DNA of 64,000 nt, taken from assembly GCF_024700885.2 (NCBI RefSeq), contig NZ_CP117016.1; one strand, written 5' to 3'. Below, in pieces: positions 3,641 to 49,298 of this stretch. The position numbers and the translations under genes were made by a program. Source of the DNA: Escherichia coli. GTDB lineage: Bacteria > Pseudomonadota > Gammaproteobacteria > Enterobacterales > Enterobacteriaceae. The notes under the pieces were generated by a model. That model did not search any database. It was not told where the DNA came from and saw only the letters and a list, made by a program, of their open reading frames with translations. Positions within the stretch are counted from its first letter, which is position 1. Each line of letters opens with the position of its first letter.

Positions 3641-4891
3641 TCAGATGGCGTGGTTTTGCTTCATTGCAGCAATTTCATCGTCGCTATAACCCAGCTCCTG
3701 CAATACAGCAGCGGTATGTTCACCTAATAGCGGCGCAGCTTTAATATCCGGCGTAAAGGCAGAGAATTTCATTGGACAACCAACTGTCAGATATTTTCCA
3801 CGCAACGGTTGTTCCACTTCGACGACACTGCCACTTTGGCGCAAAGAGGGATCAAGTGAAATTTCTTTCATACTTAAAACCGGTGCGCAAGGAATATCAA
3901 ACTGAGTCAAATAGGCCACCGCTTCATGTTTATCAATAGTGACAGTGTATTTTTCGATTTCAGCAAAAATATCGAAAATATGTGGCTGTCGGGCATGGGC
4001 TGTACTGTATGCCGGATCGGTAATCCAATCTGGTTTGCCGATGGCTTTACAGGTGTTTTCCCAGTTTTGCTCCTGAATAGTGAAATAAATATAGGCGTTA
4101 GGATCGGTTTCCCAGCCTTTACATTTCAGGATCCAGCCAGGCTGACCGCCACCACCCGCATTACCTCCGCGGGGAACTGCATCACCAAATGTGCCATTCG
4201 GATACTGCGGGTATTCTTCCAGATAACCCAATTTATCGAGACGCTGCTGGTCGCGTAATTTCACGCGGCAAAGGTTCAATACGGCATCCTGCATTGACAT
4301 GGTAACTCGTTGACCACGCCCCGTTTTTTCGCGATGCAGCAAAGCAGCAAGTAAACCGATCAGCAAATGCATTCCGGTGTTGCTGTCACCCAACGCTGCA
4401 GCGCTTACCAGCGGCGGGCCGTCCCAAAAACCTGTAGTGGATGCCGCACCACCCGCTGCCTGAGCAACGTTTTCATAGGCTTTTACATTCACATAAGGCG
4501 AACACTCATCAAACCCTTTGATCGAACCAAAAATCAAACGTGGATTGATTTCTTGAATATGCTCCCAGGTGAAGCCCATGTGATCAATGGCCCCTGGATG
4601 AAAGTTCTCGACTAAGATATCAGCTTCGCGGATCAGCTTTTCCATTACCTCTTTGCCTTCCGCTGTTTTGGTATTTAATTCAATAGAACGTTTGTTACTG
4701 TTAAGCATGGTGAAGTAAAGCGCATCGATATCAGGAATATCTCGCAGCTGGTGACGCGTTACGTCACCAACGCCGGGACGTTCAATTTTAATGACGTCAG
4801 CGCCAAACCAGGCCAGCATTTGAGTACAAGATGGGCCAGATTGCACACCGGTGAAATCGAGAACTTTAATTCCTTGAAGTGGAGTTGACAT
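3641..4891 (-). CDS. frc: Formyl-CoA:oxalate CoA-transferase
   Basis: 416-aa ORF, N-terminus [43 protein letters not shown] typical of family III CoA-transferases. Confidence 0.9.
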
Positions 4892-5142
4892 AGCAATACC
4901 TATTAGTTAATTAAATATATGTTAATTTAGCGTTTATTTAAGGCATAACGCCCTCTATAAATAATCCGCAAAATATCGTCGTAGCTGCACTCGATATTTT
5001 TAAATTCCTGTATCAAGTGCTGAAAATCATTTCATCGCCACTTCCAATTCCTTTCTGCATGGTAAGTAGTGAGGACGAAAAGAAGAATATGATAAATATT
5101 GGTTCGCGGTAATCAGAGAGAGCCGCGACATTTGTGATGTTA

Positions 5143-5160
5143 TTCTTACAACTGTAAGAA
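5143..5160. promoter_or_regulatory. Candidate EvgA box: perfect 18-bp palindrome TTCTTACA-AC-TGTAAGAA, about 250 bp upstream of frc
   Basis: Exact 8-N2-8 inverted repeat read directly; matches the EvgA box consensus TTCPyTACA-N2-TGTAPuGAA as I recall it. Confidence 0.5.
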
Positions 5161-5403
5161 GCGCCGGTGATTTACAAGTAAGGGTATGATTACGCCTTTT
5201 AAAGCGTACCATAAAACATAACATAATAAATGATTTGTGATGACACGGGATTATTGCGGTTTACTTTGAGGAAGATAAAATGCGAGTTTATAGAACCGCG
5301 AGCGCCAAATAATTTTATGACCACAACCTGTCGTATTGTGGTCATAAAAAATTGTCGGCTGGAGGGAGTTAAATCCTTTACCTCAATATACTGCCTGTCA
5401 GCG

Positions 5404-6036
5404 TTAGTTCACAAACAGTGCTTCGCTATCGACGATGATTCCATCTTCCGCACCTTTAAGCGCCAGGTTTGCCTCGTAGTATTGCTTTTTATCAAGCAGT
5501 TTCTGCGCATCAGCAAGTGCATTACGAGTCTGTTTGAGCGGCATCAGATATTGGTTTTCCATTACGCCAACACCGGCCAGGCGCAGCTCTTCCATTGCGC
5601 CCTTTTTATCCCCTTTCGCCATTTTTTCGTTGGCAATTTTTATCGCGGCTTCTTTTTCGGGTGTCGCTACATAACTCTCAGAAATTCCGACAGATGCATT
5701 AATGACAATATATTGGTCATCATTGACATTGGTCTTTTTACCTGGCTTAGCGAACTTTGCCCATTCGGTACTGTCATCTGACAACAAAGCTGAAGCTTCA
5801 TTGGTCAGTTCTTTTGCCTTTTCCGGATCGCCATGAAACAGAGCCAGGCGCGCTACCTGCACGTCACGCATCGCATATAAACCTTGTTCAGAGATACGCT
5901 CTGCTGCTGCCGTTTTCTGGGTTTGCTGAACTTGCTGAGTTTGCTGTTGTGCCGCTACCGGTGCATTATCAGCCGCCCATACAGTTGAAGATGCCAGAAT
6001 TGCTGTGACCATCGTAGCCATAATTAAACGTTTCAT
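5404..6036 (-). CDS. yfdX: YfdX-family periplasmic protein (signal peptide, EvgA-regulon member)
   Basis: 210-aa ORF with N-terminal signal peptide [21 protein letters not shown]; position between frc and ypdI. Confidence 0.85.
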
Positions 6037-6133
6037 ACTTACCTCATTCTTTAACAGTTTTAGAAAACGCCGCCATCATATTGGGTGAGCATGAAATGAG
6101 AAATCAGAGAGCAACGGTCATTTTGAAAGGGTT

Positions 6134-6151
6134 ATCTTACAGTTGTAGTTA
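6134..6151. promoter_or_regulatory. Weak EvgA-box-like inverted repeat upstream of yfdX
   Basis: aTCTTACA-gt-TGTAGtta, about 13 of 16 positions match the consensus. Confidence 0.3.
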
Positions 6152-6171
6152 TTATCGCAAGAAGTATTTTA

Positions 6172-6189
6172 GTCTTACAATTGTAGGAA
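6172..6189. promoter_or_regulatory. EvgA-box-like inverted repeat upstream of yfdX
   Basis: gTCTTACA-at-TGTAGGAA, 15 of 16 positions match the consensus; about 140 bp upstream of the yfdX start. Confidence 0.45.
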
Positions 6190-6331
6190 TATGCTTCCTG
6201 TCGCAGAGAACTATTCTTATATACCACAAAGAGATGTCATTTATTATATCGATGTAAATACTGATTAATTAAATGTAAATACAGCCATAACATCGTAGGT
6301 TCTCAGTGAGCCATTCTCAGGATAACTTTCT

Positions 6332-6607
6332 ATGAAAGTAAACTTAATGCTTTTTAGCTTATTTTTATTGGTCTCTATTATGGCATGCAATGTTTTTGCA
6401 TTTTCCATTTCTGGTGGTGGAAGTGAGACGAGCTATAAAGAGACAGAAAAAACGTCAGTGATGACGACAACTCATTCTACAAAACTTCAGCCATCACAGG
6501 CGATTTTGTTTAAGATGAGAGAAGATGCGCTACCATTAAATCTCACAGAAGACATCACGCCCCCTTTTCCGACAAAGGCGAATTATCTTATTCATCCTGT
6601 GCGATAG
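6332..6607 (+). CDS. ypdI: Small putative lipoprotein
   Basis: 91-aa ORF with signal peptide and lipobox-like SIMAC motif; position matches ypdI. Confidence 0.65.
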   Translation: MKVNLMLFSLFLLVSIMACNVFAFSISGGGSETSYKETEKTSVMTTTHSTKLQPSQAILFKMREDALPLNLTEDITPPFPTKANYLIHPVR

Positions 6608-6683
6608 CGTCTGTCACATGGCAGGTGAACAATCATATCTGTTGATGATGTGAGCACCTGCCCAAATGATCCATCCTGAACTA

Positions 6684-6926
6684 CTACCGCCTGCCATACC
6701 CCACCATAAAGCGAATCATCAAGCCACAAGCCGGGGCAAGAAACATAAATATCCCCGTCACTAGTTCATTACCGCCTGTTAACCACATGGTGAAGTAGTA
6801 AATGAGTGCAGCGAGGATCACCATGCCGAAGAAAGAAGAGACCGCCGAGACCACGTTCAGTACCTGACCGATGTATCCGCTTACGCAGACAATACACAGG
6901 GCGAGAAACATCCATAAATAAATCAT
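6684..6926 (-). CDS. yfdY: Small inner-membrane protein (DUF2545-like)
   Basis: 80-aa ORF with two hydrophobic helices; position matches yfdY. Confidence 0.65.
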   Translation of the reverse strand: MIYLWMFLALCIVCVSGYIGQVLNVVSAVSSFFGMVILAALIYYFTMWLTGGNELVTGIFMFLAPACGLMIRFMVGYGRR

Positions 6927-7278
6927 AGCTCAACCTCCTGCCGCGCTAAAAAACCTGTAACTTCAGTCACTTTAATAGTAAGACAATCCTTAACCTCTGG
7001 CAATTTTTGCTAAGCATCAATGAAAACAGCATGTTAAATGCAAGACTGTTGCGTACGGAAAAATATTTACTTTGCACGATTAATAATCAGTAGCTGAAAG
7101 CAGTCAGCCAGTGATAAAGTACAGATACCGCATTCATGCTCCTCGTGGTTATGTCCTGACTAGTCTTTACACTCTTTACAGGAACCATTGTCGTACATGA
7201 TGGCCCAACCAATTGAGTGTACCGCTGTCGACATGGAATCTTCTGCGATACAACAATTCGTATCTACAGAAGGTAACT

Positions 7279-8199
7279 ATGTTTCCACAATGCAAATTTT
7301 CCCGCGAGTTTCTACATCCTCGCTACTGGCTCACATGGTTTGGGCTTGGTGTACTCTGGCTTTGGGTACAGCTTCCTTATCCTGTTCTCTGCTTTCTCGG
7401 CACGCGTATTGGCGCAATAGCGCGACCATTCCTGAAACGGCGTGAATCTATCGCCCGTAAAAACCTGGAACTTTGTTTCCCACAGCATTCTGCGGAAGAA
7501 CGCGAGAAGATGATTGCCGAAAACTTTCGTTCACTCGGCATGGCGCTGGTAGAAACCGGCATGGCGTGGTTCTGGCCCGACAGTCGCGTACGTAAATGGT
7601 TTGATGTTGAAGGGTTGGATAACCTTAAACGCGCACAAATGCAAAATCGCGGCGTAATGGTTGTCGGCGTCCATTTTATGTCGCTGGAACTGGGCGGCCG
7701 CGTGATGGGACTGTGCCAACCAATGATGGCTACCTATCGTCCACATAATAATCAGCTGATGGAATGGGTGCAGACCCGTGGGCGCATGCGCTCTAACAAA
7801 GCGATGATCGGCAGAAATAATCTGCGCGGCATTGTCGGTGCACTGAAGAAAGGTGAAGCGGTATGGTTTGCTCCCGATCAGGATTATGGTCGTAAAGGCA
7901 GCTCCTTCGCGCCGTTCTTTGCGGTGGAAAATGTCGCCACAACCAATGGTACGTATGTCCTTTCACGTCTCTCTGGCGCAGCCATGTTAACCGTAACGAT
8001 GGTAAGAAAAGCGGATTACAGCGGATATCGTTTGTACATCACCCCAGAGATGGAAGGCTACCCGGCAGATGAAAATCAAGCCGCTGCCTATATGAACAAG
8101 ATTATCGAAAAAGAGATCATGCGCGCACCGGAGCAGTACCTCTGGATCCACCGTCGCTTTAAAACGCGCCCGGTGGGAGAATCGTCGCTATACATTTAA
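7279..8199 (+). CDS. lpxP: Lipid A palmitoleoyl acyltransferase (cold-induced late acyltransferase)
   Basis: LpxL/LpxP-family ORF; six-frame ORF starts at 7213 but the ATG at 7279 (MFPQCKFSREF...) gives the expected 306 aa. Confidence 0.85.
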   Translation: MFPQCKFSREFLHPRYWLTWFGLGVLWLWVQLPYPVLCFLGTRIGAIARPFLKRRESIARKNLELCFPQHSAEEREKMIAENFRSLGMALVETGMAWFWPDSRVRKWFDVEGLDNLKRAQMQNRGVMVVGVHFMSLELGGRVMGLCQPMMATYRPHNNQLMEWVQTRGRMRSNKAMIGRNNLRGIVGALKKGEAVWFAPDQDYGRKGSSFAPFFAVENVATTNGTYVLSRLSGAAMLTVTMVRKADYSGYRLYITPEMEGYPADENQAAAYMNKIIEKEIMRAPEQYLWIHRRFKTRPVGESSLYI

Positions 8200-22963: not shown

Positions 22964-22987
22964 ACACATTCGCCAATGGAGCACAAT

Positions 22988-23005
22988 GCCTGATGCGACG
23001 CTAGT
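22988..23005. repeat. Left half of a REP/palindromic unit interrupted by the IS insertion
   Basis: gcctgatgcgacgctagt; together with 24438-24459 it reconstitutes a REP of the same type as the intact copy at 46393-46428. Confidence 0.6.
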
Positions 23006-23047
23006 TGAACTGCACCCCAAATGTTGGACATAATCTGACATCTGAAG

Positions 23048-23578
23048 GTGCAGTTTATGAAACATTCATTTGAAGTAAAACTTGCCGCTGTAAATCATTA
23101 CCTGGCCGGTCATGCAGGCATCATTTCTACGGCAAAACTCTTTCAACTTTCTCACACCAGCCTCTCACACTGGATTAATCTTTTTCTTCTTCACGGTCCT
23201 CGGGCACTGGATTGCAGACACAAGCGTAGCTATTCTCCTGAAGATAAACTTTGCGTGGTTCTTTATGCTCTCGGGCATTCTGAGTCTCTACCCCGGGTAG
23301 CTGCCCGGTTTAACATTCCCAGCCACAACACGGTTAAAAACTGGATAAAAGGCTACCGCAAATCTGGTAATGAGGCCTTTATCAGGCGCAGGAAGGAGAA
23401 AAGCATGACCCGTTCTGATGATACCCATGAAAACGAGGCAAACATGACGCCGGAAGAGATGAAGAATGAGCTGCGTTATCTTCGCGCAGAAAATGCATAT
23501 CTGAAAGCCATGCAGGAGCATCTCCTGGAAAAAAAGCGCCAGGAGCTGGAGAAAAAACGAAAGTCATCCGGAGCCTGA
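23048..23578 (+). CDS. IS3-family transposase OrfA (HTH DNA-binding part)
   Basis: 176-aa ORF with HTH and leucine-zipper-like C-terminus; A6C slippery run at 23552-23558 near its 3' end. Confidence 0.8.
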   Translation: MQFMKHSFEVKLAAVNHYLAGHAGIISTAKLFQLSHTSLSHWINLFLLHGPRALDCRHKRSYSPEDKLCVVLYALGHSESLPRVAARFNIPSHNTVKNWIKGYRKSGNEAFIRRRKEKSMTRSDDTHENEANMTPEEMKNELRYLRAENAYLKAMQEHLLEKKRQELEKKRKSSGA

Positions 23579-23682
23579 GGTGCGGACACTGCCAGCCTGA
23601 CCTGTTAAAGGCTGCAGGGCTGGCCAGAAGCACGCTGTACTACCAGCTGTCACTGCAGAAGGCTAAGGACAAGTATGCTGAT

Positions 23683-24535
<853 letters not shown>

Positions 24536-33328: not shown

Positions 33329-33670
33329 ATGGCCACTATCTCTTCAACTTCAATTCCTTCCATACAAACACAGAGTAGTAACAGGGCATCAGAAGGTAGC
33401 GATGTTGCTTCACAAATTGCGCGGATAAGTCAGCAAATCATCAAACTCACTCAACAAATTAAAGAGATTGCAGACACTAGCGGCAGTGCTGAAGACAAGC
33501 AAAAACAGGCCGAATTGATTCAGCAGCAAATCACCCTACTGGAAACACAACTGGCGCAGTTGCAGAGACAGCAGGCAGAAAAAGCGCAGGAGAAAGAGCA
33601 GCGTTTGTCTCTGAATGCATCCCTTCCAAATCCTGTTGAAAAAACGACTCATATCGATATCTATATCTGA
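33329..33670 (+). CDS. FlxA-like small coiled-coil protein (Gln/Glu-rich, conserved ...THIDIYI C-terminus)
   Basis: 113-aa ORF with SD GAGGA 7 nt upstream; heptad-like Q/L/E repeats ([29 protein letters not shown]); resemblance to FlxA is from memory, not alignment. Confidence 0.45.
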
Positions 33671-44129: not shown

Positions 44130-44982
44130 ATGCTTCCGCCAGCGGCGGCAAAATCAATTCATCGCTCTCATGCTGCTGGGTGTAGCGCATCACTTCCAGT
44201 ACGCGCAACCCCGCACGGTGCACCGCATCGTTTAACGCCTTCCCTTTCAGCAAACCACTGATAAGCTGAGCACAAAACAGGTCGCCAGTCCCTTTCAGGT
44301 CAGTTTTAACCCGTGAATGGGAAATGACATTCACGCTGTCGGCACTGACCACCACCACCACCTGCATCTCCTGATTTTCTTCGTTACCGGAGGCGCTGGT
44401 AATCACCACCCATTTTAATGTGTCTGAAAGCAGACTTTTTGCGGCAGCAATGGCACTGTCGAGATCGCGGCAATTTTTACCGGTCAGGATTTCCAGCTCA
44501 AAGATATTGGGGGTAATTCCCTGCGCCAGCGGCAGTAAATATTGTCGATACGCCTCGGGAAGGTCAGGTTTGACATAAATTCCGCTATCAATATCGCCAA
44601 TCACCGGATCGACCATGATCAATAGGTCAGGATGGTCTTTGCGTAGCGCAGTCATCCACTCGGCAAGGATTTTGATTTGCGATGCCGTTCCCATATAGCC
44701 CGTGGTTACAGCTCGAAGTTGGCGCAGCGCATCACGCTCCTGAAGCGCACGCAAATAGCCGCTAAACCATTCGTCCGGAATCGCACCACCGTAGAAAGTG
44801 TCATAATGCGGCGTATTGCTCAGCAATACCGTCGGCACGGCAAAGACATTCAGGCCGTTCTGTTTGATAGCAGGCACGGCAATGCTGTTGCCTACGCTGC
44901 CGTACACTACCTGCGACTGCACGGCGACGATATCCGCCTGCAATGCCCTGCTCTTATCGTTAAACAACAACAAACTACTCAT
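44128..44982 (-). CDS. pdxK: Pyridoxal/pyridoxine/pyridoxamine kinase
   Basis: 284-aa ribokinase-superfamily [36 protein letters not shown]. Confidence 0.8.
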
Positions 44983-44995
44983 TTAATTTTTTCTC

Positions 44996-45061
<66 letters not shown>

Positions 45062-45086: not shown

Positions 45087-45455
45087 ATGAAGAAAATCAT
45101 TTGTCTGGTCATTACGCTGCTAATGACACTCCCCGTTTACGCGAAGTTAACTGCCCATGAAGAAGCCCGTATCAACGCCATGCTGGAGGGATTAGCACAG
45201 AAAAAGGATTTGATATTTGTGCGTAACGGCGATGAACACACCTGTGATGAAGCGGTTTCCCACCTGCGTCTGAAGCTCGGCAACACGCGCAACCGCATTG
45301 ACACCGCCGAGCAGTTTATTGATAAGGTGGCCTCGTCGTCATCGATTACCGGGAAGCCGTATATCGTGAAGATGCCCGGTAAAAGCGATGAGAACGCACA
45401 ACCTTTTTTACATGCGCTAATTGCGCAGACGGATAAAACAGTGCCTGCGCAATAA
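45087..45455 (+). CDS. yfeK: Small periplasmic protein of unknown function
   Basis: 122-aa ORF with signal peptide [19 protein letters not shown]. Confidence 0.65.
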
Positions 45456-45457
45456 TC

Positions 45458-46369
45458 TTAAATCCCTGCCCCCTGACTAAAATGCTCTTCCCCAAACACC
45501 CCGGTAGAAAGGTAGCGATCGCCACGATCGCAGATGATCGCTACCACCACCGCACCGGGGTTAGCCTTTGCCACGCGCAGTGCTCCGGCAACCGCGCCGC
45601 CGGAGCTGACGCCACAGAATATTCCTTCCCGCACTGCCAGTTCGCGCATGGTGTTTTCTGCATCGCGCTGATGAATATCCAGCACCTCATCCACCAGCGA
45701 AGCGTTGAAAATCCCCGGCAGATATTCCGCAGGCCAGCGGCGAATGCCGGGAATGCTACTGCCCTCTTCCGGCTGCAGGCCAACAATGGTCACCGGTTTG
45801 GATTGTTCGCGCATAAAGCGTGAAACGCCGGTGATAGTGCCGGTTGTTCCCATGCTGGAGACAAAATGGGTAATGCGCCCGCCAGTTTGCTGCCAGATTT
45901 CCGGCCCGGTGGTGGTGTAATGGGCGAAGGGATTATCAGGATTATTGAACTGATCGAGCAGCTTTCCTTCACCACGATTCGCCATCTCCAGCGCCAGATC
46001 GCGCGCACCTTCCATGCCCTGTTCTTTAGTGACCAGAATTAGCTCCGCGCCGTAGGCACGCATCGCCGCACGGCGTTCCTGGCTCATGTTGTCGGGCATC
46101 AGCAATTTCATGCGATAGCCTTTAAGCGCGGCAATCATTGCCAGCGCAATGCCGGTGTTACCACTGGTGGCTTCGATTAAGACATCACCCGGTTTAATTT
46201 CCCCGCGCTTTTCCGCCTCGACGATCATCGAAAGCGCCGCACGATCTTTCACCGAACCTGCCGGGTTATTGCCTTCCAGTTTTAACCACACTTCACTGCC
46301 GTTATCCGGCCCCATTCGCTGCAACTTCACCAGAGGCGTATTGCCTATTGTTTGTTCTAATGTACTCAC
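45458..46369 (-). CDS. cysM: Cysteine synthase B (O-acetylserine sulfhydrylase B)
   Basis: (V)STLEQTIGNTPLVKLQRMGPDNGSEVWLKLEGNNPAGSVKDRAA; GTG at 46369 gives 303 aa (six-frame ORF extends to 46447). Confidence 0.85.
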   Translation of the reverse strand: MSTLEQTIGNTPLVKLQRMGPDNGSEVWLKLEGNNPAGSVKDRAALSMIVEAEKRGEIKPGDVLIEATSGNTGIALAMIAALKGYRMKLLMPDNMSQERRAAMRAYGAELILVTKEQGMEGARDLALEMANRGEGKLLDQFNNPDNPFAHYTTTGPEIWQQTGGRITHFVSSMGTTGTITGVSRFMREQSKPVTIVGLQPEEGSSIPGIRRWPAEYLPGIFNASLVDEVLDIHQRDAENTMRELAVREGIFCGVSSGGAVAGALRVAKANPGAVVVAIICDRGDRYLSTGVFGEEHFSQGAGI

Positions 46370-46392
46370 GATCTCTATCCATACGTGGTGTT

Positions 46393-46428
46393 GCCTGATG
46401 CGACGCTTGCGCGTCTTATCAGGCCTAC
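46393..46428. repeat. REP (palindromic unit) between cysM and cysA
   Basis: GCCTGATGCGACGCTTGCGCGTCTTATCAGGCCTAC. Confidence 0.7.
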
Positions 46429-46502
46429 AGGTTACAAACCTTGCCATTAAAAAGCCCGGATCGCGGGAAGCGCCTCCGGGCGTTTAACATTCACTCAACC
46501 TA

Positions 46503-47600
46503 TCAGGCGCTTTGTGCGAGAGCAAGTTCCTCATCTCGGGTTTCGATACGCTCGTCGCCGTTATACAGCCGCGCATGTTGCAGACCAACGAATAAACGCT
46601 CGCCACGCTGCGGGGCATCGTCGCCATGCATCACAACCGTCAGCGCTTCGTTGTACCACCCCAGCGGCTGCACGACTAATTGGGTGTAGTGGCCTTTCGG
46701 GCTGGCTTCCAGTACCTGTACCGGCAGCGGCGAATCGAGGCTGGTACGGCGGCTGATATCCACTTCCCACGGACGCAGGAAGAGATCCACTGGCCCCTGA
46801 TACGCAGGTGTATAGCCCAGCGGCCAGCGATGTGCGCCAACATGGAACTGCCCGCCGCGAATGGTTCCCTGCAGGCGGTTCACTTCGCCCATAAATTCGA
46901 GTACAAAACGGGTCGCTGGTTCACGCCATACCTGGTCCGGTGCATCAGCCTGCTCGATATTGCCCTGGCTCATCACCACTACACGATCGGCTACTTCGGT
47001 CGCTTCTTCCTGATCATGGGTCACAAACACGCTGGTGAATTTCAGCTCTTCATGTAACTGACGCAGCCAGCGACGCAACTCTTTACGCACCTGCGCATCC
47101 AGCGCGCCAAACGGTTCATCAAGCAGCAGAATTTGCGGTTCTACAGCCAGCGCGCGCGCCAGTGCCACACGCTGTTTCTGGCCGCCGGAAAGCTGTGCTG
47201 GATAACGATCCGCCAGATGGGCAAGCTGCACCATCTCCAGCAATTTTGTCACTTTCGCTTTGATCGCCGCCGCATTCGGGCGCTCGCGACGCGGTAGCAC
47301 CGTCAGGCCGAAAGCGATATTGTCGAACACCGTCATATGGCGGAACAGCGCATAGTGCTGGAACACGAAACCAACTTTACGATCGCGCGCATGCAGGCGG
47401 CTGACGTCGGTGCCGTGGAAGCGAATATGCCCGCTGGTTTGATGCTCCAGCCCGGCGATAATCCGCAGCAGCGTGGTTTTCCCGGAACCAGACGGCCCCA
47501 GCAATGCGACCATCTGACCAGAAGGAATATCCAGTGAGATATCGTTCAGCACCTGGGTGCGACCAAAAGACTTCTTAATATTGGCAATCTCAATGCTCAT
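46503..47600 (-). CDS. cysA: Sulfate/thiosulfate ABC transporter ATP-binding protein
   Basis: 365-aa ORF with Walker [10 protein letters not shown] and ABC signature LSGGQKQR. Confidence 0.9.
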
Positions 47601-48465
47601 GATGTTCCTCCTGCTGCGCGCGTTTTTCCTGATTCTCCAGACGCCACTGCAACATACTCTTTAAAAACAGGGTGATAATCGCCATCAGCGTCAACAACGC
47701 GGCAGCGGTAAAGGAGCCGACGGTGTTGTAGTCCTGCTCAAGCAATTCAATCTGTAACGGCAGCGAAAGTGTTTCGCCGCGAATCGAGCCGGAAACCACC
47801 GACACCGCACCAAACTCGCCAATCGCGCGGGCGTTGGTCAGCACCACGCCATAAAGCAGCGCCCAGCGGATGTTCGGCAGCGTGACGCGGCGAAACATCT
47901 GCCAGCCAGACGCGCCAAGCAAAATTGCCGCTTCGTCTTCCTGGCTGCCCTGGCTTAACATCACCGGCACCAGCTCACGCACCACAAACGGACACGTCAC
48001 GAAGATGGTGACCAGCACCATTCCCGGCCAGGAGAACATAATTTGCAGATTATGTTCATCCAGCCAGCCACCGAGCGGGCCGTTAGAGCCGTAGAACAGC
48101 AGATACACCAGACCGGCAACCACCGGCGACACGGCAAACGGAATGTCCAGCAGCGTCAGCAGCAACTGGCGTCCAGGGAAGTTAAAGCGCGTCACCAGCC
48201 AGGCCAGCAGAATGCCGAACACCAGGTTTACCGGTACGGCAATCAGCGCGATCATCACCGTCAGCCAGATGGCGTGCAGCATGTCCGGATCGGCCAGATT
48301 CTGTAAAACCGGCATCAGCCCTTTGCTGAACGCCTGTACGAAGATATAAATCATCGGCACCAGCAGGATGAACGCCGATACCAGCATCCCGATGCCAATC
48401 AGAAACCATTTGCCCCAGTTAATCGGGCGCGCGTCATAACGCTTCAATTGGGTAACTTCCGCCAT
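47590..48465 (-). CDS. cysW: Sulfate/thiosulfate ABC transporter permease
   Basis: 291-aa permease ORF; start overlaps cysU stop. Confidence 0.9.
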
Positions 48466-49298
48466 TAATGACCTACCACACGCCGACCAAAGCGACTTTG
48501 CAGAGTGTTAATTGAGAACAGCAGCAGCAGGGATGCCGCGAGGATCACCGAAGCAATCGCGCTCGCCGCCGGGTAATCAAACTCCTGCAAGCGCACAAAA
48601 ATCATCAGCGACGTCACTTCCGTCTTCCAGGCGATGTTCCCGGCGATAAAAATCACCGCGCCAAACTCACCAAGACTACGAGTAAACGACAGCGCCACGC
48701 CCGCCACCAGCGCCGGAGAAAGTTCCGGCAGCACCACTTTGCAGAAACTCTGCCAGCGCGTTGCACCAAGCGTTTCTGCCGCTTCTTCATATTCCGGGCC
48801 TAACTCTTCCAGCACCGGCTGCACGGTACGCACCACAAACGGAATACTGGTAAAAGCCATCGCCACCGCAATCCCCAGCCAGGTATAGGTAACTTTGATA
48901 TCAAACTTCGCCAGCCATTCACCGTAAAAACCGTTCACGGAAAAGAGCGAGGCCAGCGTTAAACCGGCGACTGCCGTTGGCAGCGCAAAGGGTAAATCCA
49001 TCAGCGCATCAAGCAGCGTGCGGCCCGGAAAGCGATAACGGGTTAAGATCCACGCCATCAGCAGGCCGAAAACGCCGTTAAAAATTGATGCCACAAACGC
49101 CGACAGCAGCGTCACTTTGTAGGCCGCGACCACTTGTGGGTTGGTGATCACCTCCCAGTACTGCGCCCAGCTCATCTGAGCCAGCTGCATCACCAGCGCG
49201 GAGAGCGGCAGCAGCAAAATAAGGCACACAAACAGCAGACTGGTGCCGAGGCTTAAGGTAAAGCCCGGCAGCACGCGTCTTGATGAAACTGCAAACAT
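48465..49298 (-). CDS. cysU: Sulfate/thiosulfate ABC transporter permease
   Basis: 277-aa permease ORF; start overlaps cysP stop. Confidence 0.9.
   Translation of the reverse strand: MFAVSSRRVLPGFTLSLGTSLLFVCLILLLPLSALVMQLAQMSWAQYWEVITNPQVVAAYKVTLLSAFVASIFNGVFGLLMAWILTRYRFPGRTLLDALMDLPFALPTAVAGLTLASLFSVNGFYGEWLAKFDIKVTYTWLGIAVAMAFTSIPFVVRTVQPVLEELGPEYEEAAETLGATRWQSFCKVVLPELSPALVAGVALSFTRSLGEFGAVIFIAGNIAWKTEVTSLMIFVRLQEFDYPAASAIASVILAASLLLLFSINTLQSRFGRRVVGH

Follow-up and report, generated by a model that had tools for sequence, protein, structure and literature searches.

We have analyzed a stretch of 64,000 nucleotides (hereafter the window) from the Escherichia coli contig NZ_CP117016.1 (RefSeq assembly GCF_024700885.2), specifically the point where yfeK and cysM meet tail to tail. 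A preliminary description of the sequence had placed their stop codons 2 bp apart, and this is what we found: the TAA of yfeK occupies 45453-45455, the stop of cysM appears on the plus strand as TTA at 45458-45460, and the two letters TC lie between them. Read directly, the plus strand within 45440-45470 is ...GTG CCT GCG CAA TAA tc TTA AAT CCC... The features of the junction are the following.

Positions 45026 to 45053, plus strand: sigma-E-type promoter motif GAAACTT-N16-TCAAA upstream of yfeK, from direct reading.
Positions 45087 to 45455, plus strand: yfeK, intact, with an ATG start, 122 aa and a signal-peptide-like N-terminus (DUF5329), from the open reading frame and profiles.
Positions 45420 to 45453, no strand: imperfect hairpin in the 3' end of yfeK, closing at the stop codon, from folding.
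Positions 45456 to 45457, no strand: putatively un-inserted yfeS site, the 2-bp spacer TC, from the sequence, the open reading frames and the annotation of strain 1190.
Positions 45458 to 46369, minus strand: cysM (cysteine synthase B), end of the cysPUWAM operon, from the open reading frame and a profile; a CDS of 912 nt in strain 1190.

YfeK matched Pfam PF17263 (DUF5329) at 1.8e-31 (108.7 bits, cut-off 27) and NCBIfam NF007646 from end to end (279 bits over positions 1-122 of 122, cut-off 171), a full-length match above the curated cut-off that places it in the DUF5329 / PRK10318 family. CysM scored 561 bits against the equivalog model TIGR01138 (cut-off 394), and with cysA immediately upstream on the same strand it holds the position of the last gene of the operon. 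No open reading frame with a WGR domain lies between the two genes, where there are only the 2 bp between stops, and the junction contains no remnant of yfeS. A tblastn search of the whole 64 kb with YfeS gave only a chance match of 15 residues (E = 2.3).

A probe of 1,011 bp across the junction was 100% identical in strain 1190, a canine E. coli isolate (NZ_CP023386.1) in which RefSeq annotates yfeK and cysM with the same 2-bp gap. Over the 64 kb the window and this strain differed at some nine substituted positions and in pdxK, where the window has an additional Val codon. This codon is an in-frame expansion of a 3-bp repeat and the sole indel between the two: the window has five consecutive Val codons at 44347-44361 (minus strand, seen as a run of CAC on the plus strand) and a product of 284 aa, while K-12 and strain 1190 have four and 283 aa. 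The spacing of the stops is by itself statistically unremarkable for the region. As annotated in strain 1190, it has 12 convergent gene pairs, of which 5 are at most 5 bp apart or overlap, namely eutR/hemF (5 bp), cysM/yfeK (2 bp), ptsP/ypdC (2 bp), ypeB/yfeH (-4 bp) and yfeR/flxA-like (-10 bp).

The preliminary description had also stated that K-12 carries a further gene, yfeS, encoding a WGR-domain protein, between yfeK and cysM. The statement was right. In MG1655 yfeS is 735 bp long and 955 bp separate the two coding sequences, so the difference in gene content (955 bp versus 2 bp) is real, and the junction of the window is tight because it lacks the insert of about 950 bases found in K-12. 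The large gap was wrongly placed in a three-way MAFFT alignment; the junctions were therefore determined by visual inspection together with separate alignments. Window and K-12 are 98-100% identical in the pts genes, and closer than 500 bp to the junction the identity is only 92.5-94%, as would fit a haplotype that is old or was imported. Looking at a wider region (45159-49951), identity to K-12 was 92.5-94% at the junction and about 94-98% through cysM-cysP, and between 51952 and 52951, around murR and the murQ-murR spacer, it was 88.6-91.6%. Such low values in the cys-mur region are unusual for E. coli core genes and suggest old or imported haplotypes there.

In order to know how common each arrangement is, we counted both in 5426 complete E. 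coli genomes. The tight junction, searched by blastn (11-base words) with a 70-bp probe that has the junction at its centre, gave a contiguous match in 4038 genomes (74.4%), and the yfeS segment reached a coverage of at least 80% in 1381 (25.5%). Together they account for all the genomes but seven (5419 of 5426). Megablast with the same probe had retrieved only 273 genomes, since SNPs break its 28-base word, and that count is superseded. K-12 and BL21 are among the carriers of yfeS. The window, O157:H7 and UPEC 536 share exactly the junction GCGCAATAATC/TTAAATCCC, and the GTDB representative of E. coli has it too, with one substitution upstream in yfeK. These numbers also bear on the idea that the 2-bp junction is an artefact of sequencing or assembly, such as a collapsed repeat. 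The REPs of the yfeS segment are repetitive and could in principle confuse an assembler, but nothing supports this having happened, and it is refuted by the presence of the same junction in another genus and in 4038 complete genomes that many laboratories sequenced on many platforms; we give this explanation practically no weight.

The segment found in K-12 has a defined structure. It consists of the end of yfeK, a 32-bp spacer with a ribosome-binding site, yfeS, half a hairpin (intact in BL21) and two inverted REPs. YfeS of K-12 matches the WGR domain (Pfam PF05406) at 6e-18. The REP part matches tens of sites in every E. coli genome, and in K-12 the REPs of the yfeS-cysM spacer fold at -38 to -40 kcal/mol (z about -3). 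Exactly at both boundaries we found an 8-bp direct repeat, ATTAATCC (local positions 2007-2014 and 2959-2966 of the extracted K-12 locus). This 1 kb contains eight other chance pairs of 8-bp repeats, and only the position of ATTAATCC is informative. It has the form of the target-site duplication of a transposon-type insertion, also in the Pseudocitrobacter copy described below, and suggests that the original event involved either such a duplication or microhomology. The K-12 cassette has no inverted repeat joining its ends and contains no transposase: its only open reading frame is yfeS, with a WGR domain and without a transposase domain. The PADLOC models of anti-phage defence gave no match at E <=0.01 for YfeS or YfeK.

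The composition of yfeS also sets it apart. Its GC content is 39% (GC3 37%), versus 46-57% (GC3 51-62%) for crr, pdxK, yfeK and cysM. Outside the enterics the nearest relatives of YfeS are at most 65% identical, and those that could be named, from Paenibacillus, Dysgonomonas, Lysinibacillus and Clostridium, share 44-58%. Phage records held no close homologue. One homologue, 70% identical to YfeS of K-12, is carried by NZ_CP098226.1, a 50-kb non-mobilizable plasmid of a canine E. coli, at positions 4001-4702 of the extracted locus; the region is unannotated and gives no vector information. Besides, in some genomes IS elements (ISVsa5, IS1A) interrupt yfeS, as in E. coli T2 (local positions 746-2818) and strain LR-03, which is consistent with the gene being dispensable.

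We have examined 22 loci, found by one scan of the GTDB species representatives with peptide patterns of YfeK, to see which arrangement is the older. Pseudocitrobacter faecalis has the arrangement of the window, with 2 bp between stops (CAATAAAC up to the TTA of cysM). Enterobacteriaceae bacterium UBA5654 has a single base pair between the two stops, Citrobacter amalonaticus and Superficieibacter sp. have 31-32 bp, and yfeK and cysM overlap in Escherichia sp. E1V33. All of these lack yfeS; the sample of out-groups is a small one, with no Salmonella, Klebsiella or E. fergusonii in the 22 loci, and the peptide patterns miss distant yfeK genes. Taken with the frequencies within E. coli, the GC content and the distance of the YfeS relatives, the out-groups point to a tight junction that existed before yfeS was inserted, and the window probably keeps the un-inserted, ancestral site. 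The preliminary description had written that yfeS appears absent. The absence stands, and the polarity that it implied does not: the state of the window is that of the majority and, by the out-groups, ancestral. The exception is K-12, which bears the insertion, and the missing yfeS is therefore not a loss.

The contrary polarity, in which the ancestor had yfeS between yfeK and cysM and the lineage of the window lost it by deletion, so that K-12 keeps the first state, deserves some consideration. The direct repeat flanking the cassette could promote a deletion, and yfeS is clearly dispensable, as its interruption by IS elements in some genomes indicates. However, a deletion from repeat to repeat does not give the junction observed. 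Removed precisely between the copies of ATTAATCC, the K-12 sequence would become ...GAAGGAAATTAATCC next to TTA, but the window has ...CAATAATC next to TTA, and therefore one simple event does not link the two haplotypes. The CAATAA-type junction is common to the window and Pseudocitrobacter faecalis, yfeS is missing in every other out-group with convergent yfeK and cysM, its GC content is foreign, and between genera the third positions of yfeS are far more alike than those of its flanks (see below). An ancestral yfeS is thus very improbable. Since a deletion between the repeats does not recreate the junction of the window, the original insertion probably took place in a donor lineage outside those sampled.

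In one lineage of Pseudocitrobacter yfeS occupies the identical site, together with the ...PAEGN* tail of yfeK and the REP pair, and is bounded on either side by ATTAATCC. The junctions and the repeat are identical in this cassette and in that of K-12, and the genes around it compare with K-12 as follows.

crr: 90% DNA identity, 72% at third positions.
yfeK: 80.5% DNA identity, 59% at third positions.
yfeS: 95.9% DNA identity, 92% at third positions.
cysM: 89.6% DNA identity, 73% at third positions.

The first of these Pseudocitrobacter contigs came from a metagenome-assembled genome. A chimeric contig was ruled out because five independent assemblies have this protein within one non-E. coli gene order (EAL-domain gene, pdxK-like, SnoaL-like, yfeK, yfeS, cysM). 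As yfeS lies at the same place and its identity is far above that of the flanks, the cassette would have moved between the genera long after they diverged. The most likely way is homologous recombination through the conserved ends of yfeK and cysM, which would be the simplest route since the junctions are kept and the cassette brings its own yfeK tail.

Our preferred reading is that the window holds the un-inserted and probably ancestral allele of a site where other strains carry a foreign cassette of about 0.95 kb that has moved between enterobacterial genera; we put its probability at roughly 0.88. In about a quarter of E. coli genomes the cassette sits at the point between yfeK and cysM, made up of an alternative tail of three codons for yfeK, the ribosome-binding site, yfeS, the hairpin and the two REPs, and bounded by ATTAATCC. 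The polymorphism in gene content is real, and it is an ordinary one that is already annotated.

What happens to transcription at so tight a junction was also considered. The sigma-E-type motif of yfeK is identical in K-12, O157:H7 and UPEC 536, and in K-12 yfeK-yfeS has been described as a sigma-E-controlled operon (PMC11502571, PMC2685091). The preliminary description had noted the lack of an intergenic terminator, and our consensus scan detected none at the junction, nor did any Rfam family match there. The hairpin at 45420-45453 has a 9-bp stem (AUUGCGCAG/CUGCGCAAU) and a 16-nt loop, and folds at -13.5 kcal/mol on the plus strand (z -1.7) and at -16.9 kcal/mol on the minus strand (z -0.8). 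It could be thought of as a bidirectional intrinsic terminator standing in for the intergenic one, given that its stem (11 bp on the minus strand with G-U pairs) closes exactly at the stop of yfeK and is perfect in the haplotype without yfeS (GCGCAA), with one mismatch in that of K-12 (GCGGAA). Against this, the folding energy is no better than that of shuffled sequence on either strand, the loop is long, a U-tract is lacking on both strands, the consensus scan does not recover it, and no such stem exists in Citrobacter amalonaticus or Superficieibacter sp., both with tight junctions. We consider a role of the hairpin as terminator unlikely. Without the cassette the transcript of yfeK would run into cysM in antisense, and that of cysPUWAM into yfeK. 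With no terminator between the genes, each transcript would have to end inside the opposite coding sequence, probably through Rho after the release of the ribosomes. As a speculation, the sigma-E transcript of yfeK in strains without yfeS might, as antisense to cysM, couple envelope stress to cysteine synthesis.

The same junction carries other cargo in some species. In E. albertii 1.8 kb lie exactly between yfeK and cysM (local positions 4313-6149), with two AT-rich open reading frames on the minus strand (280 and 175 aa) that have no Pfam match. Citrobacter sedlakii has 3.8 kb (local 4358-8182) with two open reading frames of about 630-650 aa, one of them with TPR repeats, and Superficieibacter electus has an insert of 0.5 kb (local 4358-4891) with a gene for a 140-aa SnoaL/DUF4440 protein. 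None of the three is related to the yfeS cassette. A broader proposal, in which the junction is a recurrent landing site for small cassettes in Enterobacteriaceae and the yfeS cassette was inserted by way of its REPs or by transposition and then spread between genera, is a long shot when all of its parts are taken jointly.

Other differences from K-12 were apparent in the same region. At the murP-yfeX boundary (about 54978-55019) the window lacks pbp4b (yfeW, about 1.3 kb) of K-12; the alignment skips positions 22979-24389 of the extracted K-12 locus, and strain 1190 has only a partial pseudogene of 87 bp. At about 33329-33670 collinearity with K-12 begins only at 33660, the end of yfeR. Next to this gene strain 1190 has a FlxA-like gene, an RtT sRNA and tRNA-Lys/Val genes where K-12 has yfeN, which is another difference in gene content. 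Between mntH and ypeC (about 23057-24405) there is a transposase of IS1397, of the IS3 family, with a programmed frameshift according to the annotation of strain 1190. IS1397 inserts into REP/BIME sequences.

The importance of these findings is small, and they involve no new type of element or mechanism. They indicate that yfeS, a K-12 gene for a WGR-domain protein of unknown function, is a horizontally acquired accessory gene missing in about three quarters of E. coli genomes, and that K-12 is not the reference state at the yfeK-cysM locus. In annotation, the lack of yfeS should be taken neither as a loss nor as an error. A yfeS deletion mutant of K-12 is sensitive to boric acid (PMC11502571), and the accessory status of the gene matters for the interpretation of such phenotypes. 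Mildly interesting besides are the presence of one cassette at identical junctions in two genera and the unrelated cargo in other species.

Compared with known genomes, the segment pdxK-yfeK-yfeS-cysM of K-12 MG1655 (b2418-b2421) has the flanking genes, order and orientation of the window, the same sigma-E-type motif before yfeK and pts genes that are 98-100% identical. It differs in the 955-bp segment of yfeS and REPs, which the window lacks, and in the tail of yfeK, ...PAQ* in the window (122 aa) and ...PAEGN* in K-12 (124 aa), because the last codons belong to an alternative haplotype. Among the strains without yfeS, O157:H7 and UPEC 536 have 2 bp between stops as in the window, and in ATCC 8739 the match to the 70-bp junction probe is contiguous, with 98.6% identity. 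In O157:H7 and UPEC 536, however, yfeK is annotated as a frameshifted pseudogene with a GTG start (local positions 438-805 and 438-807, respectively), the frameshift being a T6 run shortened to T5 near the 3' end or a C4 run extended to C5 near the 5' end, whereas yfeK of the window is intact; the gene appears to be decaying in some lineages. With respect to the REP/BIME regions between convergent genes of E. coli, the inverted REP pair of the K-12 spacer is the usual 3'-end structure, whereas the window has no REP at the yfeK/cysM junction. Its nearest REP-like match lies at 46392-46424, in the cysA-cysM spacer, a partial match to Rfam naRNA4 (RF02564) of 37.9 bits, below the gathering score of 59.5, which we take to be a REP element on the assumption that the naRNA4 family derives from REPs.
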